Source: a virus
Lineage: Duplodnaviria > Caudoviricetes
Reading direction: 5' to 3' (one strand)
DNA length: 59,907 bases
IMG/VR virus record: IMGVR_UViG_3300030103_004214
Span: 1 to 59,907 of that record
Positions 4,450 to 41,804 of the stretch are shown one piece after another. The stretch's first letter is position 1; each line of letters opens with the position of its first letter. The notes under the pieces were generated by a model. It saw only the letters and a list, made by a program, of their open reading frames with translations. It did not search any database and was not told the origin of the DNA. A program made the translations under genes and the position numbers.

Positions 4450-4803
4450 TTACTTCTTCGATTTTTTCATTCCCTGTTGTATCTGAGTATTCATTTTACT
4501 AAATCCTTGTTCTATTTTACCTGATTTAAGAAAATCACTAAACTTATTTACTGCACCTGGCAATTCATCAGTCATTTTGGTAACTTTATCATCTACAAAA
4601 CCTTTTACTTTATTAATTGCTTCTTCATCATCTTTAGCACCTAATTTTTCAAGTGCTTTATTTTTTACAGTATTAATAACAAAATTTTTGACATCTGCTG
4701 GATTGATAACCTTACCTATTCCCTTTGCAGTTCTTTCCATAGACTTTTCTATATTCGGTAAAACTTTAGGTGTCTCTTCTTGAAATTGTTGAAATGTTTT
4801 CAT
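4450..4803 (-). CDS. Hypothetical protein with MKTFQQFQE leader (candidate internal head protein)
   Basis: 117-aa Lys-rich helical ORF; TAATG-coupled to the upstream gene. Confidence 0.75.
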   Translation of the reverse strand: MKTFQQFQEETPKVLPNIEKSMERTAKGIGKVINPADVKNFVINTVKNKALEKLGAKDDEEAINKVKGFVDDKVTKMTDELPGAVNKFSDFLKSGKIEQGFSKMNTQIQQGMKKSKK

Positions 4804-10931: not shown

Positions 10932-11195
10932 TTATTTAAAGAAGTCGCTATATTCTCCCGTAGGATCTCCAAACACTCTAATTTTTTTGTATTTATTATC
11001 TTTCCTTCTTTGTTTCAATGCGTCTACACCTGTTGAAAAGTCACTTTTATTTACTTTTGTAGATGGTGTATCTGGTGTTGATGGTTTAGATGGTGTTTTA
11101 CCTTTAGGTTTTAATAAATTATATAAAGCGACACCACCAAGACCTAAACCCACCATTGTCTTTAGACCTTCATTAAATTGTTTAAAAGTTTTCAT
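10932..11195 (-). CDS. Hypothetical protein with MKTFKQFNE leader and Gly-rich hydrophobic segment
   Basis: 87-aa ORF; ATGA overlap with the upstream gene. Confidence 0.75.
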   Translation of the reverse strand: MKTFKQFNEGLKTMVGLGLGGVALYNLLKPKGKTPSKPSTPDTPSTKVNKSDFSTGVDALKQRRKDNKYKKIRVFGDPTGEYSDFFK

Positions 11196-11680
11196 GTTCC
11201 TAATCTAATTTTTGCGTCTTTTGGTTTGAATGCTAGTGTTGTATTTATAGGTTTTTCTTTATTTTTTATCGGTGTTGTTTCAATTTTATTTTTATTAGTT
11301 TTATTGTTTGTCGGTGCTGTCTCAATTTTATTTTTATTAGTTTTATTTTTTGCTATTGTAGTATTACTTAGTGTATCAGATACAAAATTTCTTCCATCTG
11401 GACCTACAAATTTATTAGCAGTAGATAAACCCTTAACACCCTTTGCTATTTTATCACTTTTACTTACAAATTTAGCACCTTGAAATATTTTACCACCAGG
11501 TACTGCACCTAAAGCACTTAGTGCAGCTCTACCATAATTACCCTTTCTTGCTTGCTTAACAGCATCATATGCAGAATATGCAGCTAATCCTGCACCTATT
11601 ACTTTTCCTGCAACTGCAAGAGCAGGTAATCCTTCATTTAATTTATTGGTTTCCTGTTGAAACTCATTAAATGTTTTCAT
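11192..11680 (-). CDS. Hypothetical protein with MKTFNEFQQE leader, Gly/Ala-rich hydrophobic helices and a tandem repeat
   Basis: 162-aa ORF; TAATG coupling. Confidence 0.75.
   Translation of the reverse strand: MKTFNEFQQETNKLNEGLPALAVAGKVIGAGLAAYSAYDAVKQARKGNYGRAALSALGAVPGGKIFQGAKFVSKSDKIAKGVKGLSTANKFVGPDGRNFVSDTLSNTTIAKNKTNKNKIETAPTNNKTNKNKIETTPIKNKEKPINTTLAFKPKDAKIRLGT
11269..11352. repeat. 42-bp tandem repeat x2 encoding (N/K)NKTNKNKIET(A/T)P
   Basis: Copies at 11269-11310 and 11311-11352 differ at three positions. Confidence 0.9.
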
Positions 11681-13843: not shown

Positions 13844-15256
13844 TTACATAAGGTTTGTAACCTTAACTCTTCTGTAGTAACGGTTCTTGTTACGTGTAAG
13901 AACACCAAGTCCTTGTCCGTCAGCCGCACTACCTTGTGAGAATGGGTTCTCGACAATACCATATCTTGTCTTGAATCCAATTTTTGGTTGGAATGTATCC
14001 TGACCAACCGCACGAACCATCTGTAGAGGAACGTATGGGCAGTAGAATAATCCAGCGTCGTATGGAGATGAACCCTTGTAACCAATAACGTAATACTGAG
14101 TATCAGATACGTTAGCTGAGAATGGGTCGATGTATACTCTATACTTACCTTGTAAAACACCAGCAAATGTATTGCCTGTGTCGTCTACGTTTAAGTTTGC
14201 ATTAAGTGCAGGTGTGTAATCTAATACACCAGCCATTGTTAATGCTGAAGCAACGTCTGCGGAACATAGGATCATGTTACCCTTTCCACGACGAGTTCTT
14301 TGTGCGATAGCGTTAGCGTCTCTTTCGATTTGGAATATAAGACCCTTAAACTTCTCAACACTCCATCTTCCGTTGGAGTCTGTGTCTAAGTCGAATGTTC
14401 CACCTGAAGCAACGTTTGCTTGTGCACCTGGTTCAGCGACGTTATAGATTGTTCTGATAACTTCTCTGTTGATTTCAGCAAGAATCTCAGTTGATAGAAT
14501 GTTTGCTAACTCAGCCTCTGCATTCAATCCGTGGATTGCTTTAAGGTCTTGAGCTAATTCTAGACTGTACTCTGCTTTTAGTGCTCTGGACTTCGCTGTT
14601 ACGGTTACTTTCTCGATTGAGAATGCCATCTGGTTGAAGTTATCACCAGTTGTTCCGAGGTCTTCAGCGTCGTCTGTACGCATACCCTGACCTACGTTGT
14701 AGTCAGTAGCATTTGTTTGTGCAGCAGTTCCATTAAGAAGTCCTGGATTAGAACCGTTCTGTGCAGTTGTACCTAAACCAACGTTGCTTGCACCTGTAGC
14801 AGTGAAACCGCTAGTAAGGTCTAATCCTTCATTCTGTCCAGAGAATGCTGAATCTGCTTCGTTGAATAGTGCTTCGCCACCAGACTGATTGTTGAATCTG
14901 GATCTCATTGCGAAGATAAGTCCTGTAGGACCATTCATTGGTTGAACACCAGCAAGGTCATAAGCGACCAAGTTTGGCATTGAACGTCTAATTAATGAGA
15001 TTAGAACTGGGTCGAAACCAGCAACAGGTCCAGTAGCACCTGCGTTAGCAGAGAAACCTGCATTAGCACCTGACTGTGTGTTTACTGTTGGTTGTTCTGA
15101 AAGGAATGATGCTTCCTCTCTTAATTCTTTTTCTTGGTTTTCAAGCAGGATTGCGGTAGTAGCTCTTCTATGAGCGTCCTTGATTGGATCAAGTCCATCA
15201 TAATCGAGGATAGGTCCCCACTTCTCCTGCAAGTGTTGTGTGTTATACATTTGCAT
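13844..15256 (-). CDS. gp23: Major capsid protein gp23
   Basis: FDPVLISLIRR, GVQPMNGPTGLIFAMR, KSRALKAEYSLELAQDLKAIHG, FQPKIGFKTRYG. Confidence 0.99.
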   Translation of the reverse strand: MQMYNTQHLQEKWGPILDYDGLDPIKDAHRRATTAILLENQEKELREEASFLSEQPTVNTQSGANAGFSANAGATGPVAGFDPVLISLIRRSMPNLVAYDLAGVQPMNGPTGLIFAMRSRFNNQSGGEALFNEADSAFSGQNEGLDLTSGFTATGASNVGLGTTAQNGSNPGLLNGTAAQTNATDYNVGQGMRTDDAEDLGTTGDNFNQMAFSIEKVTVTAKSRALKAEYSLELAQDLKAIHGLNAEAELANILSTEILAEINREVIRTIYNVAEPGAQANVASGGTFDLDTDSNGRWSVEKFKGLIFQIERDANAIAQRTRRGKGNMILCSADVASALTMAGVLDYTPALNANLNVDDTGNTFAGVLQGKYRVYIDPFSANVSDTQYYVIGYKGSSPYDAGLFYCPYVPLQMVRAVGQDTFQPKIGFKTRYGIVENPFSQGSAADGQGLGVLTRNKNRYYRRVKVTNLM

Positions 15257-15301: not shown

Positions 15302-16387
15302 TCACTTTTTAACAGCTCTGGAAAGAACATCTAGATAGGCTTGCATTCTAGGTGTAGCATCCTCTTGGATTACTTCATCTGTTGAAACCTCTTCTGATAA
15401 ATTCTCAGAGGTGTTCTTTGGAGCACTAGTTTTACTTGGGAAATAAGATTCCTTAAGTGTTTCTAGTTTCTCACGATAGTCTGTATCACTTTCAAACTCA
15501 ACTTTTTCGGCAAGAGTAGCGAGTTTTTCCTTCTGAGTGTCTGCAAGACCTTCAGATACAGCGGTGAAAATACCATCTGCATTGGATTCTGCCAATCTAC
15601 GATTTAGAGCAACGTTGCGATCAATTTGCTCATTGAGTTTATTCTCCATTTCATCAAGCTTGTCTACCATGCTATTAAGCACATCATATTTTTCTTCAGG
15701 AATAGTTACATAATGTTCTTCAAAAAGACTCTTCATTCCTTCTAGGAAAGATTCAGTCATTTCTGTTTTGAGTCCTGACTCTACCTGTAATGCGTTCTCT
15801 TGGAACCACTCATCACAGACATACTCTAAGTATGAGTCAACTCTTTCTGTTAAGCCTTTCTTAATGTCATCTAGTTCTTCAACTAGTGCAGTAGCATAGG
15901 CTTCTTGCAATTCTTCTTTGATTGTTGCGACTTTAGACTTAATCGCAGCTTCAAAGATAGTAGTTGCTTTTTTCTGGAACTCTTCAGAGAGTTCTTCACC
16001 TTCAAGAAGTGCCTGAACGTCTGCTTCGACATCATAGGTTTCTTCTTCTTCGATGACTTCTTCCTCTGTTGTCTCCTCTTCGGCAACAACTTCCTCTTCA
16101 GAAGTTTCCTCTTCAGCAACAACTTCATCAGTTGCTTCTGCAGTTGGTTCTTCTTCGATTACATCGCCTTCAGGTTCTACTGATTCTGCTTTACCTGCCT
16201 TCGCATTCACGATATCCTTAACTTGTGCAAGGGTCGCTGCTGGATCTTTAAGTTTTGCAGAGTCGTCATCAGGACGATAGTTTTCTGGTGTAGGTCCACC
16301 AAGATCCTCTACTGGGATGCCTGATGATGGCATTGGATCGGCTTTACCCGCTCCTGCTGTGACCTGGTTTTCTTCGATGTTTTCCAT
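15302..16387 (-). CDS. gp22: Prohead core scaffolding protein gp22
   Basis: Acidic coiled-coil protein with EDLGGPTPENY, LSEEF.KKATTIFEAA, YLEYV..EW; lies between gp21 and gp23. Confidence 0.95.
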   Translation of the reverse strand: MENIEENQVTAGAGKADPMPSSGIPVEDLGGPTPENYRPDDDSAKLKDPAATLAQVKDIVNAKAGKAESVEPEGDVIEEEPTAEATDEVVAEEETSEEEVVAEEETTEEEVIEEEETYDVEADVQALLEGEELSEEFQKKATTIFEAAIKSKVATIKEELQEAYATALVEELDDIKKGLTERVDSYLEYVCDEWFQENALQVESGLKTEMTESFLEGMKSLFEEHYVTIPEEKYDVLNSMVDKLDEMENKLNEQIDRNVALNRRLAESNADGIFTAVSEGLADTQKEKLATLAEKVEFESDTDYREKLETLKESYFPSKTSAPKNTSENLSEEVSTDEVIQEDATPRMQAYLDVLSRAVKK

Positions 16388-16460: not shown

Positions 16461-17111
16461 TTAGAGGTTATTTAGAAAATCCTGAAACAGACTCAGTTTG
16501 TTCTCCTCTAATCTTCTTTGATCGACAAGTGTATTGATTGTCTTCTGAGTTTTTTCTGCGAGTTCTTCACGAAGACTACCGCCTTCCCAAATCCACTCTC
16601 TCCCTTCCATAATTCCATTTACAAAAGCGTCTGGAGCTGAAGGGTCTGCAACTATATCCGCTGCAGTTGCTAGTTGGAAATCTTCTCCAACCATTTTACA
16701 ACCATTACTACTTTCTCTAAGTGATCCAACACCACGAGAGGAAACTCCGAGTTTAACTCCTTCATCTATTAATGATGAAGCAATCTTACCCATAGGTGTT
16801 GATAGTAATTGTGCTTTTCCTCTAAAGTTATTACCCTCTCTTACAAGAGAAGTAATTTTATGTGAAACACGATCAAGATTCACAGTTGGACCTTCGGGAT
16901 GTCCTAGTTCTCCAAGTGCTCTTCCTTGACCCACAAAAGTTTTGCAGTATCTATTAACTTCTTTTTCAAGAATATCAACTGGATACATTCTCCCGTTTCT
17001 ATTCTTTATACCACCTTGAAGGAATACACCTTCGATATAAAGTTTTTTACCACCATTCTTTTTTTCGGTGATAAATTTAACTTGAGAAATTTCTTCTGTG
17101 ATTAGTTTCAT
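16461..17111 (-). CDS. gp21: Prohead protease gp21
   Basis: MKLITEE (ATG 17111), NRNGRMYP, ALGELGHP, GVSSRGVGSL, DIVADPSAPDA. Confidence 0.97.
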   Translation of the reverse strand: MKLITEEISQVKFITEKKNGGKKLYIEGVFLQGGIKNRNGRMYPVDILEKEVNRYCKTFVGQGRALGELGHPEGPTVNLDRVSHKITSLVREGNNFRGKAQLLSTPMGKIASSLIDEGVKLGVSSRGVGSLRESSNGCKMVGEDFQLATAADIVADPSAPDAFVNGIMEGREWIWEGGSLREELAEKTQKTINTLVDQRRLEENKLSLFQDFLNNL

Positions 17112-17115
17112 TTTT

Positions 17116-17385
17116 TTAATTTGTATATCCAACAGCAGCACCCTTTACTCCAGCGTTAGCAGCAAAGATGCCTTGTAGTGGTTCTTTCTCTAATTGAACA
17201 ACAGCACCACCTGGTAATGTAAATGAACCAACTGTTGATCCGCCCACTGTTGCAACGAGTGTTACTAAATGTGCATTACTAGTCGTATTAACAACACGAA
17301 CCAGTCTTGCATTACTAAATGCATTTGCACCAGCAGTATTTGTTCCTAATGCTGCTTCTGCACCTTTAATTAATAGTCTACTCAT
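17116..17385 (-). CDS. Conserved small virion-region hypothetical protein
   Basis: 89-aa beta-rich ORF (ARLVRVVN...LEKEP) between gp20 and gp21. Confidence 0.75.
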   Translation of the reverse strand: MSRLLIKGAEAALGTNTAGANAFSNARLVRVVNTTSNAHLVTLVATVGGSTVGSFTLPGGAVVQLEKEPLQGIFAANAGVKGAAVGYTN

Positions 17386-17602
17386 CAGTTTCCTCTGTTT
17401 CTACAGTAGTTTCATCTTCCACTTCAAGTTCAGATTCTGCTTCAGGTGCTTCAGGCACCTCTCCACCAAAGACATCTGCTGCGACCACAGGTCTAGCACC
17501 GTCAACATATTCTGATGCTCTTGCATAGAGTCTTTCCTTTATTTTATCGGAAATATCACTAGCACTAGCGTCAGTAGCTATCAAATCCACAAGATCTTCC
17601 AT
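17378..17602 (-). CDS. Acidic hypothetical protein, possible prohead core protein (gp67/gp68 position)
   Basis: 74-aa ORF (ISDKIKERLYARA) with late promoter; syntenic with T4 core genes. Confidence 0.7.
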   Translation of the reverse strand: MEDLVDLIATDASASDISDKIKERLYARASEYVDGARPVVAADVFGGEVPEAPEAESELEVEDETTVETEETDE

Positions 17603-22265: not shown

Positions 22266-22487
22266 CTACCAATCTGGATACTCCCATTCCCTCATCTTTG
22301 GTTTCTTTTTACTTCTCACTCTTTTTATAGTGCACACTTTACACTCATAGGAATATGATGATTTAATATTTTTATTCTTTCGTATAAGATAATATCCATC
22401 AATCAATTCTTTCATCTGACCACACACTCTACATTTTCTTTCAGAGAAAGTAAAATGTCCAAGTTCTAATTGTTCATCAAATTCCAT
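22266..22487 (-). CDS. Small Zn-ribbon-like hypothetical protein
   Basis: CRVC ... YSYECKVC; C-terminal WEYPDW. Confidence 0.75.
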   Translation of the reverse strand: MEFDEQLELGHFTFSERKCRVCGQMKELIDGYYLIRKNKNIKSSYSYECKVCTIKRVRSKKKPKMREWEYPDW

Positions 22488-22768
22488 TATAGAACTTGCA
22501 TTACACCAACTATCTCTGGAAAAGTTTGTGTTAGATGTCTTTCAATACCCATTCGTAATGTTTGTGCACTCATTGCACAGGTTTCACAAGCACCACTTAA
22601 TCTTACTTTAGCAATCGCTGCTTCTTCTCCTTCCTTCACCCCGTAATACATTCTAACTTGTTCTTCTAAATTATAGTCTAATTCAACAAATTCAAGATAT
22701 CCTCCATCGGATTCGATGTAAGGACGTATATCATCTAATGATTTATTAACTTCTACTGGGTCTAACAT
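22487..22768 (-). CDS. nifU: NifU/NfuA-domain Fe-S cluster carrier protein
   Basis: LDDIRPYIESDGG...VRLSGACETCAMSAQTLRMGIE. Confidence 0.88.
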   Translation of the reverse strand: MLDPVEVNKSLDDIRPYIESDGGYLEFVELDYNLEEQVRMYYGVKEGEEAAIAKVRLSGACETCAMSAQTLRMGIERHLTQTFPEIVGVMQVL

Positions 22769-24700: not shown

Positions 24701-25060
24701 TTATACTCTTACACCAAATGGATTATTTGGTGTGCCAGATCTTACTGAACCTTTTCCAACTCCAGCTGCATTCTTATACTTAGGACCTGCTATAACATCT
24801 CCTGCAGCACCTTTTGCAGGGGGAGTCTTGAATAATTTTTTATCGTGAGTAGCAATCTTTTTATCTTTAACTTTATTTAATTTAGCTCCCTTAAAATCAG
24901 TGCCCATAAAATACTTACTGAAAAAATCAATTGCTCCCCTTTCAAGAACGTCCTTTGTTCTTATATAAGGTAATGTTCCTGAATATGAATTTGGATAAGG
25001 AGACCTCTCACTTGAATTTTTTGGAACTACTTGTTCCTGAAATTGTTTAAATGTTTTCAT
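24701..25060 (-). CDS. Hypothetical protein with MKTFKQFQE leader (candidate internal head protein)
   Basis: Start ATG 25060 by TGATG coupling to the upstream stop; basic protein. Confidence 0.75.
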   Translation of the reverse strand: MKTFKQFQEQVVPKNSSERSPYPNSYSGTLPYIRTKDVLERGAIDFFSKYFMGTDFKGAKLNKVKDKKIATHDKKLFKTPPAKGAAGDVIAGPKYKNAAGVGKGSVRSGTPNNPFGVRV

Positions 25061-28029
25061 CAGCAGTTCCACCTTCTAAGTGCCTTATTAATTCTTGAAT
25101 CTGGATCTCTTGCAGTTTTTGCAGATGTAAGTCTTTTCTTCATACCTTTCATCCTTCTACAGAATGACAGTCTTCTCTTTGCATCCTTAGAACCTTTCTT
25201 CAATTTCTTCGGATCTTTTGTGACTGCAGTTTTTAATTTAGAACCAGGATTCTCACGACGATATGCCTTGACTGCCTTTTTACTTAAACCATCTGTCTTA
25301 TCTTTACGATTAACTTTCTGCCAATCTTCACCTAAGTCATCTCTCCAATTAGACATATTTTCTTTGAGTGCTTTAGGTTTAATTATATCAACAGTTTCAA
25401 TTTCTGTAAACTTGATATCATCTACATTCCAATCTTGAATTGTAAGTGCTTCATCAGCAATATTCTCATTCATTTTTTTCTTTTTCTTCTTATCCATAAC
25501 AATTTTAGTTGCGATTGCGTACTTCACGTTCTTGTCACCATATCTATCTTTCATATCTTTGGTGCTAATTGCATCAGCAATCTCATCACGTTTTTTGATG
25601 TCCTTTTTAGTCATTTTCTTTTCATCAATGACTTCACCTTCTGGTTCATAATGTGCTAAGTTAATGTTATCACCTCCCAATGTTTTTTTAATTTTTTTAC
25701 CTTTACCTACACCCATTATATTTTTATCAATACCATCATCTAGATTTTTCATTGTTCCCTTTATATTATCACCTGTCATATTTTTTTTCTTAGGTGTTTC
25801 ATAAATTGATCCTGCACCAGTGCTGGTAGCATAAAATCTTTGTAACATAGATGGTGTTACATTTGGATCATCTTTTCTTTTTTTATCTCCACCAGTTGCA
25901 GTTTTAAGTAAAACATCGGCTGCACCTTCAATCACTCCATCGTAATCGATCTCCTCTTTCCGAGTTTTCTTTTTAGACTTTTTTACGCAGTTTGGATACC
26001 TCTTACCGAACATTGTTTTCATACCCTTCTTTTCGTAACCTGGCCAGCATTTCTCTTCTAAGTCTGTTCTCCAATCAGAAAACTCCTCTTTCTTCATTTC
26101 TTTTTTCTTGCCATAAGTCTTGCAAGGTGTTTGACCACATCCACAATTCTTATCATCACCTACACCTGCTGCTCTGAGTTGTTGTGCTTGTTTTTTATGC
26201 ATTGCAACTGCCTTGTCTAATTGACCAGGTATTTTATTTGCAGTTTCACCAGCATCTTTCTTAAACTCAGGAGACTTCCTTAATCTTTCTGCCTGACTTT
26301 TATGTAATGCAACTGCCTTATCTAACTCTGCTGGTATTTTATTTACCGCAGAACCATAATGCCCTTCTTTAATATCATCTTCATGAGGTATGGTGTTACC
26401 ATCTTCATCTTTACGATGATGCTCTGCCAAAGCATCTCTCCAACGATAATGAGGTGTCTTATAAACCTTTGCTTCATATTCAACTTCTTCCTTACGACTA
26501 TTACCCCAGTTTGCAGCACCAACTTTACGACACTTAACTAATGCACCTGATGCATATGCACTTGGCCAGACTGAATATCTTGACTTGACTTTATGATAGC
26601 AAGCATCTTTTTTACCACTACCCTTACCTTTTCTATCTTTTCCTTCAGACACAGTATCGTGACACTCACACTCACAATTATCACAACTCTCACCACACTT
26701 CTGACAACCTTCTTCTAATATTGCATCTCCTACAACAACACCATTCTCAGCAAACCATCCACGATTTACTTCGATTGCATATCTAATATTTCCATTTGGA
26801 TATACTGGAATTGAACTTAATGGGTTTAATTGTTTAATACTTTCAATAATACCTTCTTCGTTTATAAACGCAATATCAAGAGGCATCATAGTATTCTTCA
26901 TATGGAAAGAGTGTTGACCTGTTTCCTCAAATATAAAAAGCATTCCCCGATCCTGTTCCAGACTCTCACGGAACATCAGACCTAATCTAAATTCTCCATC
27001 ATTTTGTGGAACTTCAAGTTGAAGTGGTAGTGAGATAAATTCTTCTTTCATTTTCTTTTTCTTAGGTTTGTCAGTTGCAACATATGTTGGTTTTGCAGCA
27101 CCTGTTTTCTTTTGTTGATTTGGATCTGCTTTTTTCTTTCTTCTTGCTGCTGATTCTCTCTCTTTTTTAGTCATACTTTCATATTTACTTCGAGACACGC
27201 ACTTTGGCACTCCCTCGCCTGGTTCATCACTTGCACAAGTTCCTCCTGTGCGAACATTAACCCAACCACCTTTTCCATCCTTAGACTTAGAACCACTGAA
27301 CCATTTATGAAGTGAACCCTCTTTTACTTCATCTTTATTTGTCATATAATCTGCTGCAGTATCAAGATAATCAGCTGCTTTAGTTATCTTAGACTGCACC
27401 CATGCTTTAACCTCACCTTCACCTTTACCAACTTTCTTTTTAATTTTCTTAGCAGAAACCATAACATTATCAGTTTGACGACGAATCATTTCATGTTCGT
27501 GGTCGCCCTTATGAGATTTACCCTCATTCATTGCTTTTGTTTTCTTTTTCATTGAGTTGATAAACTTTCTATACACTGCTGCTTCAGCAGTCTTACCCAT
27601 CACTCTTGCTCTTTGCTCCATAGCAATCGCTGCTTGAATTTTATGAGCATGTGATCGACTTGATTTCCTAATCTTTGCCACGCTCGCTTTCGCAGTAGCG
27701 ACATTCTTGAAACCCAGTCCATGAATAGTTCCTTTAGGATCTTCATCTGTATATAAATCAGAATGTTTTTTTGACTTTGCAGGTTGTCCTTTTTTACGGG
27801 CAATGCGAGGATTTGATTCCTCAGTCATTTTTTTCTTTTTACCTGCACAGTGTGCTTTCTGACTGAACCCTTTTGGATTGTCACAATCAATCGATTTTTT
27901 GTATTTTGATGACCAACCTTCTTTTACAAGAAAACCGTCTTCACGAACCTTATACCCTTTGGGTATTGGTTTATACATCTTGTCCGTATTACAGTAGTAG
28001 TATCCTTTTTTAGGGGACTTTGTGCCCAT
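25060..28029 (-). CDS. 989-aa Lys-rich modular protein containing a DUF192-like domain; candidate internal-head polyprotein
   Basis: String of short basic modules ending in hydrophobic-X-E; GLMFRESL..DRGMLFIF...FHMKNT..PLDIAFI (DUF192-like) at about 26710-27040. Confidence 0.85.
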   Translation of the reverse strand: MGTKSPKKGYYYCNTDKMYKPIPKGYKVREDGFLVKEGWSSKYKKSIDCDNPKGFSQKAHCAGKKKKMTEESNPRIARKKGQPAKSKKHSDLYTDEDPKGTIHGLGFKNVATAKASVAKIRKSSRSHAHKIQAAIAMEQRARVMGKTAEAAVYRKFINSMKKKTKAMNEGKSHKGDHEHEMIRRQTDNVMVSAKKIKKKVGKGEGEVKAWVQSKITKAADYLDTAADYMTNKDEVKEGSLHKWFSGSKSKDGKGGWVNVRTGGTCASDEPGEGVPKCVSRSKYESMTKKERESAARRKKKADPNQQKKTGAAKPTYVATDKPKKKKMKEEFISLPLQLEVPQNDGEFRLGLMFRESLEQDRGMLFIFEETGQHSFHMKNTMMPLDIAFINEEGIIESIKQLNPLSSIPVYPNGNIRYAIEVNRGWFAENGVVVGDAILEEGCQKCGESCDNCECECHDTVSEGKDRKGKGSGKKDACYHKVKSRYSVWPSAYASGALVKCRKVGAANWGNSRKEEVEYEAKVYKTPHYRWRDALAEHHRKDEDGNTIPHEDDIKEGHYGSAVNKIPAELDKAVALHKSQAERLRKSPEFKKDAGETANKIPGQLDKAVAMHKKQAQQLRAAGVGDDKNCGCGQTPCKTYGKKKEMKKEEFSDWRTDLEEKCWPGYEKKGMKTMFGKRYPNCVKKSKKKTRKEEIDYDGVIEGAADVLLKTATGGDKKRKDDPNVTPSMLQRFYATSTGAGSIYETPKKKNMTGDNIKGTMKNLDDGIDKNIMGVGKGKKIKKTLGGDNINLAHYEPEGEVIDEKKMTKKDIKKRDEIADAISTKDMKDRYGDKNVKYAIATKIVMDKKKKKKMNENIADEALTIQDWNVDDIKFTEIETVDIIKPKALKENMSNWRDDLGEDWQKVNRKDKTDGLSKKAVKAYRRENPGSKLKTAVTKDPKKLKKGSKDAKRRLSFCRRMKGMKKRLTSAKTARDPDSRINKALRRWNC
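26173..26345. repeat. Internal 35-codon-period duplication (NKIPxxLDKAVAxHKxQAxxLR x2)
   Basis: NKIPAELDKAVALHKSQAERLR and NKIPGQLDKAVAMHKKQAQQLR. Confidence 0.85.
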
Positions 28030-33709: not shown

Positions 33710-33922
33710 CTATGATGTTATCTTTGAGGCAAGGTCATTTAATAAGGATTTTAGTTCATTAATCTCATTTTTCATGTCATCTAGTTGCTCTTGTTTACTT
33801 TTATTCCTATTTCTTAGAGCAATATAATTTTCATAAGCAACCGTATCTTGATTTACTATTGCGTTTGTATTTTCATCACGAAATAAGTCTTTATGACCTT
33901 CAACTGGTATCATTTTACTCAT
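33710..33922 (-). CDS. Conserved hypothetical protein (70 aa, C-terminal coiled coil)
   Basis: VEGHKDLFRDENTNAIVN...EINELKSLL. Confidence 0.8.
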   Translation of the reverse strand: MSKMIPVEGHKDLFRDENTNAIVNQDTVAYENYIALRNRNKSKQEQLDDMKNEINELKSLLNDLASKITS

Positions 33923-34401
33923 TACTTACCTAAATCTTTATCTATTTGTTTATTGATTGCTCTTTTATCTTTCATATTCTGGTTTTGCCTTTTCAATAAT
34001 TCTCTAACAGTTTGTGCTGGACTCTTACCTCCTTCTTTCTTTCTGAAATCATCTGAAACAGAACTAATTCTTCCAGTTGAACTTGTTGATTCAACTTCTT
34101 TACCTGCACTTAAACCTTTTTTATACCTAAGACCTGCATCAACTAATGCATTCTTTATTTTTTCTCTTGTGCTTGGTTTTTCAGCATCTGACTCTGCCTT
34201 TTTCTTTAAATCTTCTCCTTCACCTTTTTGCTGTTGCTGTCTTAGTTTCTCAAAGTTACTTCCACCATTTTTTTTGCTAGCTTGATATAACGTTCCTACA
34301 GCACCAATACCTGTCATTAAAGCAGGAAGTATAAATTTACTTCCTCCCTTCAATGCTGCTAAAGCAGCTGCATTTTCCTGAAATTGGTTGAATGTTTTCA
34401 T
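33922..34401 (-). CDS. Hypothetical protein with MKTFNQFQE leader and hydrophobic segment
   Basis: 159 aa; TAATG coupling at both ends. Confidence 0.75.
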   Translation of the reverse strand: MKTFNQFQENAAALAALKGGSKFILPALMTGIGAVGTLYQASKKNGGSNFEKLRQQQQKGEGEDLKKKAESDAEKPSTREKIKNALVDAGLRYKKGLSAGKEVESTSSTGRISSVSDDFRKKEGGKSPAQTVRELLKRQNQNMKDKRAINKQIDKDLGK

Positions 34402-37400
34402 TATGCTAGTGCAATTGCTCTAAAGTCCTTAAACTTGATTTGTGATGACTCATTTGTTGAACTCATTACTATTTTAATTGTGAATGAATTAAATTGCTCT
34501 AAATTATCAGCAGTAAATTGATACTCTGAGAATATTCCTATTCGATTAGGAGATACAAAAGCATCCGATCTACCATCATTCTCAGCAACATTAATTATTT
34601 CATCACCAAATCCATCACCATTTGTATCTCTCAAGTTTACGAAACCAGGAAATGGTCTGTATGTTGAAGACACTTCAGTTGAGTCTGAACTGAATAAACG
34701 ATAATATACTCTAAAGTCTGATTCAGGTTGCACACTTGCACCAACTAATACTTTAAGTGATGTTGCAGGTTGTTGTAAGTCAACTCTTTGAGAAACAAAT
34801 ACTGAACCATGAGGGTCATTTTTAAGTTGATTTGTGCGATCATCTGATGCATAATTAGCAAGACCAATAGGATTGTTTAATTTATTACGTCCAAGAATAA
34901 ATATTGCATTCTTAGTATCCAATACTGGTGATAAGTTTGGATCTTGAGTGCTCATATTCACATTCAAGGTTAATGATTTATTTTTTGGAAGAGTTGCTAG
35001 TCTCGCATTTTCATTAATTTTAGATGCAACTAATCTTGGTGTTGGGAAGAATGTTGCTTGATTTAGAATCGCTGGCTCAAATCCTTGATCTACAAATGAA
35101 TTTTCAACACCATCTGCACTTGTACCACTAATTGTTCTAAACGATGAATTAACCCTTGTTGTTCTACCTGGTGTAATACAATTAAATTGTGGTGTTGCAT
35201 TACTAAATTGATGGTTTTGTGATACTCTCGCAACTTTACCACCAAATGCCTTTTCATTCTTGAAACATAATAATGAATTGCCAGTTCTTGTTGGAGCAAG
35301 ATTGGAAGTATTAATTTCTAAGAAATAACTGTCAATAGTATCTTGATGTGATGATACTGTAAATGTTGTATTAATACCAACTAATGATATACCACTTGCT
35401 TCATAAGTTTGAATGTCTGCATTTTCGGGATGAGGTAAAGCAATTGTATTAAATTTACCCCTTGTTAATGTTAATGAACCAGTGCCAACAACATAAGATA
35501 CAATCTCATCCTCAAATAATGCCTCACCTCTGTCAGTTGTAATACCATTATATGATACAAATGGAGTTGTGTTTGCAACAGAAACAGTTGTTCCCTCTGC
35601 AGTTACACTTGATGTTGTTTGTATAATCTGGGTATCAGGTTTAATATTTTTAACATCAACTTGATTTAATCCAGAGTGATGTGCGTGATTGAATTGAGTG
35701 ACCTCAAATACATTACCAGTAAACTTCGCACCATTTACAGTAGAGTCACCATTTACAGCGACGTTTGTAGCAACAGTTCTAGTATTATTATTAGCACCAT
35801 AATGAACCATTACTTCATTATTTGTAAATTTCTCACCCTGAACATCAGTTAGATATAAAGTATCAAATGTTGAGTTGATTGCTGTAACAACAAACTTCAA
35901 TCCAGAACCTCTGGTATACTTAGAACTTGTAGTGTCAACTGTTAATACCTCACCAACTTGATAACCGTTACCTGCAGCATTAATGGCAATTGCGGTTACA
36001 ACACCACCAGATACAGTTGGATTCACTGTCGCTCCAGTTCCACTTCCAGTTAATGAAACAACTGGTACAGCAGTTGTGTTACTGAATGCATATCCACCAC
36101 CACCAGATACTACTTCTTCAGTGGAAATTGGTGCACCTTGTCCTTCAATAATACCTGTTACACTTTGATCTTCTAAATCAGCAGCTGCACCTGTACTTAC
36201 TTTTCTTCCTATTGGGAATACAGCATCTGTTTTTGTTCCAGACCCATCAATAACAACTTTTAATTTTCGAGGTAAAGATTTAAGTGGATTATCAGGTAAA
36301 ACTTGTGTATTTAAGTTTCCTGCTTCAATTGGAGTATTAAAGAATGTTGCAGTTCCTGAAGGTACAAATGATGCCTTACGTAACTTAAAGCATAAATCTT
36401 GGAATTGACTTGGAGTCCAAATTGTTCCATTCTGTGATTTAAATAAACTACCACCAAGATATTGTTTGGATACAATTACATTCTCAACATCAGGTAAGTT
36501 TGTTGATCTAACAGTTTTCTGACCCATTGTAGCAACCCACATCTCATATTTGTCAGATGCAGGAGATAAGAATACAATAGCATACTCTCTCTTTGGTTCA
36601 AGATAAACTGGAGATGGGAAACGAATTGTAGTTGGTACAGATGCGTCAGCAGATGTGTTGATTTGATTTGGATTTAATGCAACCTGAGAATAATCCTGTA
36701 CAAGGAATCTAGTAGGAGTTCCAAGTTCAACATGCCTTAATTCAACAAATACTTTTGCACTTGGATCTTTTGATGCAAAGAATACATCAAATGAGGTTAA
36801 GAATGCACCAGTTTCATCAGTTGTAAATGTCTGGGAAAGTGGGTCTCTATCAGGTGCTTCAACCCATCTTCTATCAGTTCTAGTGGATGTGTTAGTAAAG
36901 TTAGTAAACTCGTTTGGTCGTTGTGGGGGTGCTGGTGGGTTTCTAAGGTCTACAGTTGATGTATCTTGGGTAACTATCGTTCCTGTTCCTGTAAACGTAC
37001 CAGAAGCGTCACTGGCATGGTCTGTTGCACCAGGTATTGGTATAGAACCCTCTGATGCTGCAGTCACTCTCATTGTAATTGTTCCTGAACGGAATACATT
37101 TGGTGGTTGAGGAGTTTGGTTAGGATCTCTGAAGAAGAATGCACCAACTATATCACCCCAATTATCTGAAATAAGGTTTATATTTGTAACCGTAGCAATC
37201 GCTCCACTAGTTTCACCTATGATTGTCGCATTTCTTATAGCATATCCAAAATATTCTTCAAGATTTGCTAACGATGTAACATCAACATTTAATAATCTTG
37301 ATGTTGCAGAGTAACTTGATGATGGTGCTGGTCTACTTCTATCATAAATATCAACTTCGTAATTTTCTTCTAGAACAGCAAGAGAACCAAGTCCTGAACC

Positions 37401-40400
37401 AATATCAGGTCTTTGACTATCACCAAATTTATGATTTGGTCTTTGCAGACGAACATATCCAATTTGCTCTCCATTTAATTCAATTCTTGCATTCTCAAAA
37501 ATTGTAAATGTACCTGTGACCATTTCAATTTCAACAAGTTTAGGTACGATATCTGGAACTGCACTATCAAGATACTGGAAATGACGAGTAAGTGGTTTTA
37601 ATCCATTAACTGAGAAATAAACATTTCTTGATCTCATAAACGGATCTGCTTCACTTGTTACTTTAACGTCTTCAATATACTTGAATTCTCTTGAAGGTCC
37701 TTCTAATACATTGGTAAATGCAATTTCCCTATCAATATTAACTGTTGTAGTAGCGGTAAATCCAACCCAACCTGAGTCATCACGACTTCTTCTTGTGTCA
37801 AATTGTTGAACATCAGTTGTTGAAGTGATATTCTCATTAACAATATTTGATTGCTCTACCCATCTTGCACCTGTTGACTCAATTCTTTCATCATCAAGAT
37901 AGATTGTTCGTGACCAGTTATCTGATGGTGGATCAAGAACAATTCCACCAGCAAAGGTAATTACATTGAATGGGTTAATATTTTCTACTTCAGTTGCTTG
38001 AGGTTGATTTAACCAATCTACTTCAGTATATGCAAGTGTAATTATATCACCTGTTTTCTGACAATTAGTATCAAGTAGTTGTAAATTAGAATTTAAATCA
38101 GCAGTTGCTACAGCAATCTGTGGGTTAAGTGCTAATTCTGCTCTTAAAGACCAGAAATCAACAGCATTACACATCTCTCTTTTTCTTATGTCAACATCAA
38201 TTCTTGAACCTGTTTCTGGAGTAAAATCAATAAATCTTCTATCTTTGAAGTTATTAACTGCAAAACCACTCTTAAATCGATCTAAACCATCACCATCTCT
38301 TACTTGGAATGATTTTGTATCTAACTCAAGGGCATTTAATGTTGTTAAAGTTTCAAGATTATCAATTCTCTTTTCAAGAGCACCGATATCTCTCATCGTA
38401 AATCTTCGATTATCTTGTAACTTAATAGATGGTTGTCTTACAGGATCATAAAGATATGGTGGTAAAGAAATCTGAGCAATCTCCATAGAATCACCAAGTT
38501 CAGTTGGTGGAGCAGGATTTTCAGCAGACTCACCCTTAATAAGTTTTACTTCCTCAAATTGGTTTATAACCAATTTATCAATACGTGGTAGATAGAAATT
38601 GAATCCTAATATAGAACTCTCATTAGGTGTAATTATGAATGGATTATTTGCAACAAATGTACGATTTATTAATGAGAATGGACTACCAACTCCTCCAGCT
38701 ACAGTGTAATTTGCAACTCTTGGTCTGAAATCTAATATGTCAGTGACACGATTACGATCAACTGATATTATATCATCTGTAAATCTCTCTTTCGTATATG
38801 AACTAGCTGTAAATAAATCACCTGTAACATCCCCAGATACCTGATATTGATCATACACAACTAATAATTTTCTTGATGGAATTGCAGATTTTGCTTTTCT
38901 AACAATTCTTGACAGTCCGCAATATTCTTTAGTATGACCTGAATTTAATATGAAATTATTTGTTCTATCAACAAAATTACCTGTATCAATTCCTTGTAAA
39001 ATTGATTGTATTGCTGACTCATCAAACTTTACTTTCTCACCAACAATAAATGAATTACCATTTAAGTAAACAATTTCAACATCGTTTGCATTACGATTGA
39101 CTACTTGACCAATTGCACGACTTTCTTGACCAATTACTTTTTCACCTTTTATTGAATCTGTGTTTAGATTTAATCCACCAACAAATTTTAATTTATCAAA
39201 AGTAGGTGAATTATCAGTTTTTGATTCATATATTGCAATTACTTTATTAACATCAGGTACATTAAGTGAGATTTCTTCATCTTCAACTCTCAATCCATAG
39301 TTTGAACTCGTTGTTAATCCACTTAAAGTATTGAATTTAGATGTTCTTGTAATCTGTACTTGCTCACTTCTAATATAATCTTTTGCCTTACTTGTAATAC
39401 CAATTTTCTTTAATGTGACATTAACAGTTGCGTTTCCACTTGATTTTGATAAACCGTTAAATGCAATATTATTACCACCATTTGTAATGACTACTTGATC
39501 TGAAGTTAGTGGTTCAGTTGTACCATCACTGTATTGAATTGAATATTTTTCTGCATCAAATGGTTCAAAGAATGCACTTGTAATTCCTGCAGATGCATTT
39601 AATGCATCAGAAGATGCTAAAGTTATAGTAGAACTACTAATTGCTTTATTTAATATTTGTTTGCCGATTATTAAATTTGAGTTGGATGTATCAACATCAG
39701 CAATATTTTTTCTTGGTAACGGTGCAAATATACCTGAATTAGTCGAAATTCTAGGAACTTTAACCCTAAAGGAATTGCTTGTTGATATACCTGCTGCTTT
39801 AATGGCACCATTATTAACACCAGAAACGGTAGTTGTTGCAGATAAAGTCAAAGTTGCTCCATCAGCGGATATTGCACTTACTCTGTTTACCGTTTCATCT
39901 GCATCTGTACTAAATTGATATGCAATAAGAGCATCTGTATTAATACCAATCTGTCCAGAAAATCTACGACTTGGAACATTTGCAGTGTTTGTTCCTGATC
40001 CACCTAAGACATTAAGTTGATCTGTTAGAGAAAAATTAGGTAATACTTTATCATATAAAACTGCATCAGCAAGAAAATCTGATACCAGTGCAGGTGAACC
40101 AAGGATTGTAGAGACATCTTGTGAAACACTTTTGATGTCATCAACAGTATATTTGTTTATTTTTGTGATTGAAAAATTAGGTGAACCTTGTCCCTCATTG
40201 ATTATAATTTCTTCACCATTTATAAAATCACCAGTGGTTTCAGCGACAATCATTTCTTTTGCATGTGTCGAACCAGCATTTTCAAATAAGAAACCTACAG
40301 TACCACTTGTCTTACCTCTAACTCTTGAACCACCAATTTGTCTAGTTGGTTCAAGTGTTCCTGCAACCTGTAGAATAGTAAATGTCTGGATATCATACAA

Positions 40401-41804
40401 ATGTAAATCAAACTGAGTTGTAGCACCACTGTATACTCCATCTGTTGCACCGTAAGAATATACTCTTGCTTGACCTATTTGTATACCACCTCCACTTAAT
40501 GTTGACCCATCTCTTCTACGATTGAAAAGTTTAATTGTGTTTGTATTATCACCACCAACACTTACAAATGGTGAACCAAAGACATTATTTACTTTAAGAA
40601 CACTACCCATGTTAAATGGAATAGATGCTGCATTTACTTTCTTTACATCTCTTGGTTTTTCAATATCTAATACAGTTGTTCCTGGTAAATAAACATCAAA
40701 TCCTCTTACATATGCACGACCTGGTGATAATTTAACGCACATTAAATCATCAGTTGGTTTATTTCCCTCGTCTGTTACTTGATTTTCAGTATATAATCCT
40801 CTACTATCAATTTCATTATTCAATGAATTTTGGATATTTACACGGAAAGGAACTACAGAGTAATCACCAGATTCATCAAATGTTCTCTTCGCAAAATACT
40901 TTTTAATCTCAGAATATACTGACATATTCTGTAATTTTTTAGTTTCTCCTTCTCTTACCCTAAAAAGTTCAACAAAATTCGTATCATTAAAATCTTGAAG
41001 TGATTTTTTCGCTAATTTACAAGTTATCTTAAATCTATCAGCACCAGGTGCAGCAAAGTTAGTAAATCCTTTTGCATTGTCATACAATTTAGAGTTATCG
41101 TTTGCATTTACAACCTCTTCAATTACCTCAAATCCAACTCTGTATGATGGTTGATTATTATATGGATCTAATACTATTAATGAAGTAGGAACATCAACAA
41201 ATATACCTCTTAAGAAGTAAACACCTTTGTTTACACCAAAAGCAGAACCAGTTGCTGCAGCATTTTCAGGAGTAAGTGTTAATACAGTTTCATCAATACT
41301 TAAAGTTGTATTGCCATATGTTAATGGTTCTTCAAGTATTAAAACTTCTCCATCGGGAAAAGCAACACTCTCATTATCTGTTCCAGACTGATTATACTTT
41401 AAGAAAACAGTTATTTCATCTACACCTTCTGCTGGAGGTAATATAAAATTCTTGATAGTTGCCACAATACCAGAATTTTGCCCTCTAACTCTAGTTCCTT
41501 TACCATTATTGTTAGATATAATATCACTTAGATAAATCGATACATCAATACCAAGATGTGTCGCATTAATTTTCGCAGAATAGTAGGATTTGTCAAACTC
41601 AATGCCACCAGGAATGACCATCGAACCTTCTTTGAAGATATGTTTTCCAAAGTTTTCAACTTGATTTTGTAATATAGATTGTAATCCCGTTAATTCTCTT
41701 GCCTGAACTGGAAGACCAGGCTTGAAAAGGACTTTGTAAAAATTATCATCCTTACTGAAATCATCATAGTAAGGACTTATATTTAAATTCGTTTTTTGTG
41801 GCAT
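34401..41804 (-). CDS. Large virion structural protein (DUF4815/VrlC-like, baseplate-associated)
   Basis: MPQKTNLNISPYYDDF...VQARELT.LQSILQNQ; RRFTMRDIG.LEKRI; DPLSQTF; C-terminal FRAIALA. Confidence 0.88.
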   Translation of the reverse strand: MPQKTNLNISPYYDDFSKDDNFYKVLFKPGLPVQARELTGLQSILQNQVENFGKHIFKEGSMVIPGGIEFDKSYYSAKINATHLGIDVSIYLSDIISNNNGKGTRVRGQNSGIVATIKNFILPPAEGVDEITVFLKYNQSGTDNESVAFPDGEVLILEEPLTYGNTTLSIDETVLTLTPENAAATGSAFGVNKGVYFLRGIFVDVPTSLIVLDPYNNQPSYRVGFEVIEEVVNANDNSKLYDNAKGFTNFAAPGADRFKITCKLAKKSLQDFNDTNFVELFRVREGETKKLQNMSVYSEIKKYFAKRTFDESGDYSVVPFRVNIQNSLNNEIDSRGLYTENQVTDEGNKPTDDLMCVKLSPGRAYVRGFDVYLPGTTVLDIEKPRDVKKVNAASIPFNMGSVLKVNNVFGSPFVSVGGDNTNTIKLFNRRRDGSTLSGGGIQIGQARVYSYGATDGVYSGATTQFDLHLYDIQTFTILQVAGTLEPTRQIGGSRVRGKTSGTVGFLFENAGSTHAKEMIVAETTGDFINGEEIIINEGQGSPNFSITKINKYTVDDIKSVSQDVSTILGSPALVSDFLADAVLYDKVLPNFSLTDQLNVLGGSGTNTANVPSRRFSGQIGINTDALIAYQFSTDADETVNRVSAISADGATLTLSATTTVSGVNNGAIKAAGISTSNSFRVKVPRISTNSGIFAPLPRKNIADVDTSNSNLIIGKQILNKAISSSTITLASSDALNASAGITSAFFEPFDAEKYSIQYSDGTTEPLTSDQVVITNGGNNIAFNGLSKSSGNATVNVTLKKIGITSKAKDYIRSEQVQITRTSKFNTLSGLTTSSNYGLRVEDEEISLNVPDVNKVIAIYESKTDNSPTFDKLKFVGGLNLNTDSIKGEKVIGQESRAIGQVVNRNANDVEIVYLNGNSFIVGEKVKFDESAIQSILQGIDTGNFVDRTNNFILNSGHTKEYCGLSRIVRKAKSAIPSRKLLVVYDQYQVSGDVTGDLFTASSYTKERFTDDIISVDRNRVTDILDFRPRVANYTVAGGVGSPFSLINRTFVANNPFIITPNESSILGFNFYLPRIDKLVINQFEEVKLIKGESAENPAPPTELGDSMEIAQISLPPYLYDPVRQPSIKLQDNRRFTMRDIGALEKRIDNLETLTTLNALELDTKSFQVRDGDGLDRFKSGFAVNNFKDRRFIDFTPETGSRIDVDIRKREMCNAVDFWSLRAELALNPQIAVATADLNSNLQLLDTNCQKTGDIITLAYTEVDWLNQPQATEVENINPFNVITFAGGIVLDPPSDNWSRTIYLDDERIESTGARWVEQSNIVNENITSTTDVQQFDTRRSRDDSGWVGFTATTTVNIDREIAFTNVLEGPSREFKYIEDVKVTSEADPFMRSRNVYFSVNGLKPLTRHFQYLDSAVPDIVPKLVEIEMVTGTFTIFENARIELNGEQIGYVRLQRPNHKFGDSQRPDIGSGLGSLAVLEENYEVDIYDRSRPAPSSSYSATSRLLNVDVTSLANLEEYFGYAIRNATIIGETSGAIATVTNINLISDNWGDIVGAFFFRDPNQTPQPPNVFRSGTITMRVTAASEGSIPIPGATDHASDASGTFTGTGTIVTQDTSTVDLRNPPAPPQRPNEFTNFTNTSTRTDRRWVEAPDRDPLSQTFTTDETGAFLTSFDVFFASKDPSAKVFVELRHVELGTPTRFLVQDYSQVALNPNQINTSADASVPTTIRFPSPVYLEPKREYAIVFLSPASDKYEMWVATMGQKTVRSTNLPDVENVIVSKQYLGGSLFKSQNGTIWTPSQFQDLCFKLRKASFVPSGTATFFNTPIEAGNLNTQVLPDNPLKSLPRKLKVVIDGSGTKTDAVFPIGRKVSTGAAADLEDQSVTGIIEGQGAPISTEEVVSGGGGYAFSNTTAVPVVSLTGSGTGATVNPTVSGGVVTAIAINAAGNGYQVGEVLTVDTTSSKYTRGSGLKFVVTAINSTFDTLYLTDVQGEKFTNNEVMVHYGANNNTRTVATNVAVNGDSTVNGAKFTGNVFEVTQFNHAHHSGLNQVDVKNIKPDTQIIQTTSSVTAEGTTVSVANTTPFVSYNGITTDRGEALFEDEIVSYVVGTGSLTLTRGKFNTIALPHPENADIQTYEASGISLVGINTTFTVSSHQDTIDSYFLEINTSNLAPTRTGNSLLCFKNEKAFGGKVARVSQNHQFSNATPQFNCITPGRTTRVNSSFRTISGTSADGVENSFVDQGFEPAILNQATFFPTPRLVASKINENARLATLPKNKSLTLNVNMSTQDPNLSPVLDTKNAIFILGRNKLNNPIGLANYASDDRTNQLKNDPHGSVFVSQRVDLQQPATSLKVLVGASVQPESDFRVYYRLFSSDSTEVSSTYRPFPGFVNLRDTNGDGFGDEIINVAENDGRSDAFVSPNRIGIFSEYQFTADNLEQFNSFTIKIVMSSTNESSQIKFKDFRAIALA

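Follow-up and report, generated by a model that had tools for sequence, protein, structure and literature searches.

The 989-amino-acid protein ORF989 (P0001), encoded on the minus strand at 25060..28029 of a genome fragment from a T4-like cyanomyovirus, is a string of about 15 exchangeable modules, and the joints between these modules carry a hydrophobic-x-Glu motif that is conserved irrespective of the neighboring modules. The fragment analyzed, hereafter the window, is the whole of the 59,907-nucleotide IMG/VR record IMGVR_UViG_3300030103_004214, a linear record that is about 28% complete by estimate. ORF989 belongs to the cyanophage gene cluster T4-GC119; it has a mass of 111.5 kDa and an isoelectric point (pI) of 9.6, and Lys makes up 17% of its residues. 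Comparison with its relatives suggests that ORF989 is probably a capsid-cargo precursor that is loaded into the prohead and cut there by the prohead protease gp21, a reading to which we assign a probability of roughly 0.6.

T4-like cyanophages rank among the most abundant marine viruses, and the family to which ORF989 belongs comprises tens of thousands of sequence clusters, still described only as a hypothetical protein in the literature searched. If the proposal is correct, cyanophages would possess a previously unrecognized counterpart of the T4 internal proteins, in which one precursor gives rise to many interchangeable peptides. A class of function could then be named for much of the marine viral 'dark matter', and the sequence preference of the cyanophage head protease would be established. 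The proposal would also supply a simple rule, a leader or joint motif followed by a module, by which injected phage proteins could be spotted in metagenomes.

Modules of ORF989 and their shuffling

The family is very large. Among 8000 scored candidates of 543-1731 amino acids, 6215 match ORF989 at E <= 0.001, and an exhaustive search returned 27,212 representative clusters at this threshold and 1228 at E <= 1e-30. The query was split into 15 modules at the positions where alignments to 265 relatives begin or end. The breakpoints cluster at residues 35-38, 64-72, 165-175, 230-238, 322-331 and 460-464 in the first half of the protein, and at 515-519, 551-555, 642-658, 688-699, 792-803, 850 and 882-902 in the second. 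They coincide with the Glu sites at which an initial annotation, made from the sequence alone, had divided a stop-free 989-amino-acid frame into mini-proteins. The frame is present as described, and so are all 14 of the listed sites (E37, E70, E169, E237, E329, E440, E462, E536, E555, E659, E803, E855, E890 and E901).

The same annotation had predicted that modules are exchanged between phages and had recommended a separate search with each of them. Mapped onto the 265 homologues, the modules form 156 distinct architectures and occur both stand-alone and shuffled. Changed orders include 5-8-11-15, 5-11-8-15, 3-2-5-6-8-11-15 and 5-8-4-11-15, and short proteins carry ORF989 modules as their first or sole unit. 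Because shuffled orders and stand-alone forms both occur among the relatives, the modules of ORF989 are exchangeable units. Colinear homologues without conserved Glu sites were not seen; the orders shuffle and the joint motif is kept.

All modules are given here with their residues and their minus-strand positions. Module 1 (residues 1-37; 27919..28029) is the commonest N-terminal module, standing first in 121 of the 265 homologues, and ends LVKE/G. Module 2 (38-70; 27820..27918), GWSSKYKK...CDNPKGFSQKAHC, has a net charge of +6 and ends KMTE/E. Module 3 (71-169; 27523..27819), which begins SNPRIAR, is helical with a predicted local distance difference test (pLDDT) score of about 70-80, carries a net charge of +16 and ends AMNE/G; the helical module 4 (170-237; 27319..27522) follows and ends EVKE/G. 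Module 5 (238-329; 27043..27318), GSLHKWF...GGWV...C...PKC, has a net charge of +15 and ends KKKKMKE/E. The acidic module 6 (330-440; 26710..27042; pI 4.4) is a DUF192 domain, and module 7 (441-462; 26644..26709) is an acidic Cys-rich peptide with six Cys that ends TVSE/G. Module 8, KDRKGKG...CYHKVKSRYSVWPSAYASGALVKC..., together with the first WR linker, occupies residues 463-536 (26422..26643) and ends WRDALAE/H; its residues 464-510 are almost invariant among relatives. Segment 9 (537-555; 26365..26421) is an acidic spacer that ends DIKE/G.

Module 10 with the second WR linker (556-659; 26053..26364) begins GHYGSAVNKIP, has an internal two-fold repeat, is helical in the AlphaFold2 model (pLDDT 60-83) and ends WRTDLEE/K. 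Module 11 (660-701; 25927..26052), KCWPGYEKKGMKTMFGKRYPNC, has a net charge of +7. Segment 12 (702-744; 25798..25926) ends SIYE/T, which in other proteins is a joint to module 13, and segment 13 of the feature list (745-803; 25621..25797) ends VIDE/K. The module numbered 13 throughout the analysis is the next unit (804-855; 25465..25620), which begins KKMTKKDI, has a net charge of +10 and a pLDDT of 66-85, and ends KKKKKKMNE/N. Module 14 (856-890; 25360..25464) is acidic and ends ALKE/N, a weakly conserved site. The third WR linker, NMSNWRDDLGE/D (891-901; 25327..25359), leads into the helical C-terminal module 15 (902-989; 25063..25326), a DUF6321 domain with a net charge of +24 and a pI of 11.1. 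Cutting at all 16 candidate sites would give 17 pieces of 11-111 amino acids, 10 of them with a net charge of at least +3; the candidate sites at 440, 701 and 890 have little backing from relatives.

The other features named in the initial annotation were also recovered. There are three copies of the WRxxLxE linker (W530-E536, W653-E659 and W895-E901), the Cys-pair peptides are those of C49-C61, C477-C500 and C661-C681, and the DUF192-like and C-terminal domains are identified by Pfam as DUF192 (PF02643; residues 337-437, 96 bits against a cut-off of 27) and DUF6321 (PF19846; residues 909-987, 51 bits against 28.5). At E <= 0.1 Pfam found nothing on ORF989 beyond these two domains, and in particular no peptidase or enzyme family. 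The PDB relatives of the DUF192 module, 3pjy (E 5.5e-11) and 3m7a, are both proteins of unknown function, and the ten PHROGs families that match ORF989, each over a different stretch, are all function-unknown.

Modeling of the whole of ORF989 from 48 aligned relatives gave a mean pLDDT of 42.9 and a predicted template modeling score of 0.26, too poor to judge domain independence, with some confidence only at residues 10-40, 108-170, 560-625 and 805-850. DUF6321 modeled alone reached a pLDDT of 70.2. Foldseek gave no PDB match to this model at E <= 10, BFVD returned other DUF6321 proteins only, and the best Z among 48,161 chains compared with VIA-align was 3.6, so that neither fold nor function was assigned. 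In the ESM Atlas, modules 5 and 3 fall only into unnamed viral clusters. The structure rows of this atlas place module-3-like stretches in viral proteins with CTP_transf_like, PAP2 and Zeta_toxin/AAA_33 domains, which we regard as leads. According to the published text available, cyanomyovirus virions are known to contain a cytidylyltransferase, and it is a possible lead that enzymes may ride into heads on module-3-like stretches.

Isolate homologues are annotated as T4-GC119, for example S-SM2 gene 109 and P-SSM4 gene 160, and some GenBank records label homologues as 'virion protein' or 'structural protein'. The closest isolate by the C-terminal domain is P-TIM68 (92% identity over 87 amino acids), the homologue of which has 427 amino acids, lies directly ahead of gp17 and begins MDNSNSINE/SLRDWF. 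According to the available text of Sullivan et al. 2010 (PMC3037559), 15 of 16 cyanomyoviruses have T4-GC119; its genes measure 276-2985 nucleotides (92 to 995 amino acids), and it often sits between gp16 and gp17. The main text treats it as a hypothetical protein that may lie within a mobile cassette, and supplement file 1 records 'Existence of Proteomic Data: YES' in the T4-GC119 row, a cluster-level yes/no flag. The text at hand of that paper does not mention modules, joints or processing, and the available portions of the virion proteome papers of S-SCSM2R and S-CREM2 hold nothing on the family. The literature searched contains no description of these polyproteins and no paper on DUF6321.

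A hydrophobic-x-Glu motif at the joints

The motif was counted where a module starts in a novel context, that is, behind upstream sequence with fewer than three of eight identities to the query at P12-P5; identical 18-mers were collapsed to one, and N-terminal instances were excluded. Of 445 distinct junctions of this kind, 249 have an [LIVM]-x-E that ends precisely at the joint, set against a background of 3323 in 169189 positions (0.0196), counts that come from related sequences and are not independent events, the upstream contexts being plainly diverse. Each of the remaining offsets between -4 and +4 has 1 to 28 occurrences of the motif. It is present at the joint in 15 of the 16 novel contexts of module 2, 25 of the 27 of module 3 and all 14 of module 10. 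For module 8 the count is 96 of 123, with 23 more one residue downstream, and for modules 13 and 5 it is 16 of 21 and 64 of 97, respectively. Modules 6, 14 and 4 have it less often (7/21, 8/20 and 1/7).

Among 316 joints compiled in a logo, Glu occupies P1 in 254, and Val, Met, Ile or Leu occupies P3 in 238; P2 is unconstrained, and Gly, Glu, Val, Ala and Lys predominate at P1'. The variability of P2 points to selection on the protein rather than to DNA microhomology, and microhomology as the origin of the motif was ruled out, P2 and P3 varying freely. Of 55 poly-Lys or poly-Gly/Asn linkers, 42 close with the motif immediately ahead of the following module, as in GGGDGGGGGVSE/AWS, and most of the remaining ones have M-K-x-E one or two residues earlier. 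The motif is absent from protein C-termini, as in the 44 relatives that terminate directly past module 11 with ...NCVKKSKKKK, and from the sequence before free module 2 (M/GWS). Within modules 3, 4, 5 and 13 the internal motif is scarce in raw counts (4, 3, 2 and 2 seen against 43, 63, 54 and 9.2 expected). We do not count this scarcity as evidence because the instances are related and amount to about one observation per module.

Two explanations of the motif dispense with proteolysis altogether. The first is that Met-x-Glu is a fossil of gene fusion, in which the starts of former genes stand behind Lys-rich gene ends and no processing takes place. Four of the 15 tabulated P3 codons are indeed ATG after poly-Lys (KKKKMTE, KKKKMKE, KKKKKKMNE and KAMNE), free module 5 begins MNEG or MQEG, and a single base change turns ATG into a codon for Val, Leu or Ile. 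We nevertheless regard this origin as quite improbable. Free modules 2 (M/GWS) and 3 (M/AANSRIPR) lack x-Glu, whereas their fused forms have the motif, and fusion does not explain why the P1 Glu has been retained in so many joints (the 254 of 316 noted above). Moreover, poly-Gly linkers ending VSE are no gene ends, and leaders such as MSLVE/ and MEKQVSE/ put the motif behind a true start.

The second is that the P3 residues are internal start codons, so that nested products would arise by internal initiation. P3 is ATG, GTG, TTG or ATT at 9 of the 15 sites in the window, but the other 6 codons (GTA, TTA and CTC) cannot initiate, and internal translation starts were ruled out for this reason. 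Free modules, furthermore, begin at the residue past Glu and not at P3, and we consider an origin by internal initiation highly improbable.

Leaders, prohead protease and proposed role as capsid cargo

The capsid targeting sequence of T4 is MKTYQEFIAE, which is cut by gp21. According to the available part of a review, the T4 internal proteins have such a leader, 10 residues long, in which positions 4 and 7 are important for targeting, and positions 8 and 10 for processing. A T4-like leader stands directly ahead of ORF989 modules in 13 of 389 relatives. P0095 (1098 amino acids) begins MKTFQEFLAE/SNPRIPR, with the leader on module 3; P0234 begins MKTFQQFLDTPITE/G...SLHDWF; nine relatives begin MKTFEQFTE/GSLHKWF, with the leader on module 5; two begin MRTFKQFIQ...MNE/; and in P0405, MKSFKSFTETPVDE/ACWKGY, the leader is on module 11. 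Many of the short proteins are encoded on short contigs and may be truncated at the C-terminus. Another 27 of the 265 homologues have short leaders with the motif at their end, such as MSLVE/A and MEKQVSE/G. A leader-like string also occurs within chains as a linker before module 11 (LTFQQFQE/KCW in one homologue), and the same string is found in the Syn9 protein printed in the supplement of PMC3037559, as far as that supplement was available.

In the window, five ORFs start with MKTFxQFxE or a close variant, and one of them is the gene directly downstream of ORF989 (24701..25060, minus strand; 119 amino acids, leader MKTFKQFQE). The translational coupling of the two genes proposed in the initial annotation is borne out by the sequence, the stop codon of ORF989 overlapping the ATG at 25060 as TGATG. 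In an alignment of the coupled gene MKTFKQFxE is retained in 10 of 14 rows, and two others begin MKTF and then vary. The coupled protein is itself modular, with a conserved C-terminal half (KIATHDKKLFKTPPA...NPFGVRV) on varied N-terminal parts (P0283 and P0288-P0290).

The phage of ORF989 encodes a prohead protease of the S77 (gp21) type (16461..17141, minus strand; Peptidase_S77, E 1e-35, 123 bits against a cut-off of 27). In T4, gp21 cuts after L/I-X-E and splits core proteins into several pieces, according to the review text available. The window's gp23 has a candidate maturation site, L52-S53-E54/Q55 (SFLSE/Q; 15095..15103, minus strand), that aligns with T4 SFLTE/A at E65/A66; it is read as such from this alignment and from the mature T4 gp23 chains in the PDB, which have 456 residues against 521 in the full-length protein. 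By sequence, L/I-x-E sites are also present at the putative maturation points of ORF989.

We propose the following model for the fate of ORF989. The protein would be a late product of the gp13-gp18 structural gene block, and the chain would be incorporated into the prohead core. The S77 protease gp21 would then cleave after the Glu of hydrophobic-x-Glu at the module joints and would free about 13 to 17 small products, most of them strongly basic (net +5 to +24), with an acidic minority comprising DUF192, the Cys-rich peptide and the spacers. The basic peptides would remain with the packaged DNA and would probably enter the host together with it, like the T4 internal proteins. They may bind DNA or take part in host takeover, and a role as DNA-associated, co-injected cargo is our working guess.

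Several observations weigh against this model. ORF989 itself has no N-terminal leader of the MKTYQEFIAE type and starts MGTKSPKKGYYY (MGTKSPKK...); that module 1 may serve its loading is a guess. There is no cleavage product, neo-terminus or gel size in any source searched. Enrichment of the motif within the single protein is modest, with 21 occurrences of [LIVM]-x-E against 12.1 +/- 3.1 in 2000 shuffles, 0.75% of which reach 21, and 12 of L/I-x-E against 6.2 +/- 2.4 (2.05%). Val and Met are as common at P3 as Leu and Ile, whereas the T4 rule as quoted names L/I-X-E only. Modules 11 and 15 lack the motif at their own start (0 of 55 and 3 of 41 novel contexts) and have it instead in the preceding WR linker, (H/F)(S/Y)(N/D)WRxx(L/F)xE; the pattern W[RK]xx-hydrophobic-x-E, with KCW..., DWQK... 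or HHRKD... after it, accounts for 103 of the 262 distinct W[RK] contexts. The motif is not depleted within module 1 (34 seen, 7.6 expected), module 10 (30 and 24.9), DUF6321 (62 and 35.3) or DUF192 (433 and 397), and such internal motifs are either shielded or the protease requires more than the motif. Glu-Gly is retained in module 5 even where the module is N-terminal (MNEG, MQEG and MGEG), and part of the motif before it may belong to the module itself. Finally, DUF6321 functions as a free gene in podoviruses, as discussed below, and can thus work without processing.

Some of these observations would suit a protein that stays uncut, a virion- or DNA-associated string of beads in which hydrophobic-x-Glu is a structural cap or linker signature. 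Free module 5 retains its N-terminal Glu-Gly, the motif is not avoided within several modules, and the FLV of FLVKE in module 1 is modeled as a strand. We consider such a protein unlikely, since a single motif is common to unrelated modules and closes foldless poly-Gly and poly-Lys linkers, is missing from protein C-termini and from the front of free module 2, and is accompanied by leaders of the type cut in T4 that stand immediately ahead of the same modules.

DUF6321 by itself occurs in 505 phage records, and in all six non-T4 phages examined it is a free gene of 71-85 amino acids. These are P-SCSP1d, KBS-P-1A, P-GSP1 and S-TIP37 (all Autographiviridae), HTVC033P and Pra-JY27. T7-like phages (Autographiviridae) are not known to have a prohead protease. 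The free genes fit with chains accompanying the protease, in a small sample of six records. In HTVC033P the free DUF6321 gene adjoins a lysis-type amidase. Since podoviruses have DUF6321 as a free-standing gene that works on its own, its role need not be within the capsid. Alternatively, ORF989 could be a late or host-acting protein outside the virion, processed, if at all, by another protease, and the proteomic flag of T4-GC119 could then reflect carry-over of an abundant protein. The neighborhood of DUF6321 in podoviruses, where it adjoins lysis-type or photosynthesis genes, would agree with this, and authors of cyanophage proteomes themselves caution about carry-over in the text available. 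We consider a non-virion protein improbable, given that ORF989 lies within the structural block and is coupled to a gene with an MKTF leader, that the same modules are linked to T4-like head-targeting leaders, and that the joint motif fits the specificity of the phage's own S77 protease.

As capsid cargo, ORF989 would most resemble the T4 internal proteins IPI, IPII, IPIII and Alt, which are basic head cargo with an MKT(Y/F)xxF..E leader, a leader that is found here on the neighboring gene and on relatives. The proposed cut after Glu in hydrophobic-x-Glu by an S77 protease, which the phage encodes, is likewise shared. The T4 proteins differ in being single proteins that are cut once, whereas ORF989 has up to 17 units that are reshuffled among thousands of relatives, is itself leaderless and commonly has Val and Met at P3. 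No homology of ORF989 to IPI, IPII, IPIII or Alt was detected with Pfam at E <= 0.1, and the PHROGs matches are to function-unknown families only. The T4 core proteins gp22, gp67 and gp68 have several gp21 sites per chain, and small peptides are freed from them in the head, in the source text available; their fragments are scaffold debris that mostly leaves the head, in contrast to the pieces of ORF989, which are conserved, folded or Cys-paired and also occur as free genes.

The inner-body and ejection proteins of the giant phages phiKZ, 201phi2-1 and SPN3US are described, in the parts of the sources at hand, as DNA-associated cargo that is cut after Glu in S/A-X-E by a gp21-like protease, which processes many head proteins in these phages. 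They belong to another phage group with another P3 preference, and they share no modules with ORF989 and form no shuffled chain of mini-proteins. Polyvalent proteins of phages and conjugative elements combine 2 to 15 unrelated domains, which are believed to accompany the DNA and to be set free by proteolytic cleavage (Iyer et al. 2017, PMC5512222, in the text available). ORF989, with its 15 or so modules, shares the many unrelated domains per chain, but polyvalent proteins carry enzymatic anti-defense domains and often an embedded peptidase, whereas the units of ORF989 are tiny and mostly non-enzymatic and the prohead protease is separate. The words 'cyanophage', 'Synechococcus' and 'DUF192' do not occur in the available text of PMC5512222. 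What sets ORF989 apart from all of these systems is the many tiny, freely shuffled units with a standard joint and without a peptidase of their own.

A broader scenario is possible, and we offer it tentatively. Marine T4-like cyanophages and related myoviruses may carry, as a combinatorial library, small cationic and Cys-paired peptides in the form of polyprotein precursors, comparable to neuropeptide precursors, which would be loaded into the prohead, cut by the head protease at standard hydrophobic-x-Glu joints and co-injected with the DNA. Each peptide might then hit its own host target or protect the DNA. Cassette shuffling would be the trace of an arms race, and the joint a universal 'plug' that could make any small protein a capsid cargo.

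Genome neighborhood of ORF989

On the minus strand the gene order is gp15, gp16, ORF989, the coupled 119-amino-acid ORF, gp17, gp18, gp19 and gp20, followed by two small ORFs, gp21, gp22 and gp23. Here gp15 is the tail-sheath stabilizer (E 3.8e-87), and ORF989 is flanked by the genes of the small (gp16) and large (gp17) terminase, a placement shared with S-SM2, Bellamy and P-TIM68. In P-SSM4 T4-GC119 is located elsewhere. The scaffold gene gp22 lies at 15302..16387 (minus strand; T4_CASP, E 3.6e-82). No second copy of ORF989 was found in its own genome, for which the record is the window itself.

The late-type box that the initial annotation placed upstream of ORF989 was not recovered in its exact form. 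The exact box TATAAATA occurs seven times in the window and in no case upstream of ORF989, for which the nearest similar string is the weak CTAAATAA, about 25 nucleotides 5' of the ATG and within gp16. All seven exact boxes are on the coding (minus) strand (11242, 11858, 16440, 17627, 33698, 43420 and 58645), and several stand immediately 5' of genes, namely gp22, the small ORFs ahead of gp21 and the MKTF ORF at 10932-11195. Their total is at chance level (7 seen, 7.3 expected).

The other ORFs with MKTF leaders, all on the minus strand, lie at 33922..34401 (159 amino acids, MKTFNQFQE), 4450..4803 (117 amino acids, MKTFQQFQE), 10932..11195 (87 amino acids, MKTFKQFNE, with an exact TATAAATA upstream at 11242-11249) and 11192..11680 (162 amino acids, the variant MKTFNEFQQE). 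Three of them (33922-34401, 10932-11195 and 11192-11680) continue with a Gly/Ala-rich hydrophobic stretch, such as NAAALAALKGGSKFILPALMTGIGAVGTLY or GLKTMVGLGLGGVALYNLL, that could be a membrane helix, and neither Pfam nor PHROG assigned a family to these three.

Between gp17 and gp18, within 22266-22768 (minus strand), are genes for a NifU-like domain protein of 93 amino acids (E 1.1e-19) and, beside it, a 73-amino-acid protein with two CxxC pairs; the S-SM2 gene at this position is annotated with PF09723. The two small ORFs between gp20 and gp21 (17116-17602, minus strand; 74 and 89 amino acids), for which no Pfam family was found, occupy the place of the core proteins gp67 and gp68 in T4. 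The structural region also contains giant ORFs of 2467 and 4277 amino acids, within 34401-41804 and 43440-56273 on the minus strand.

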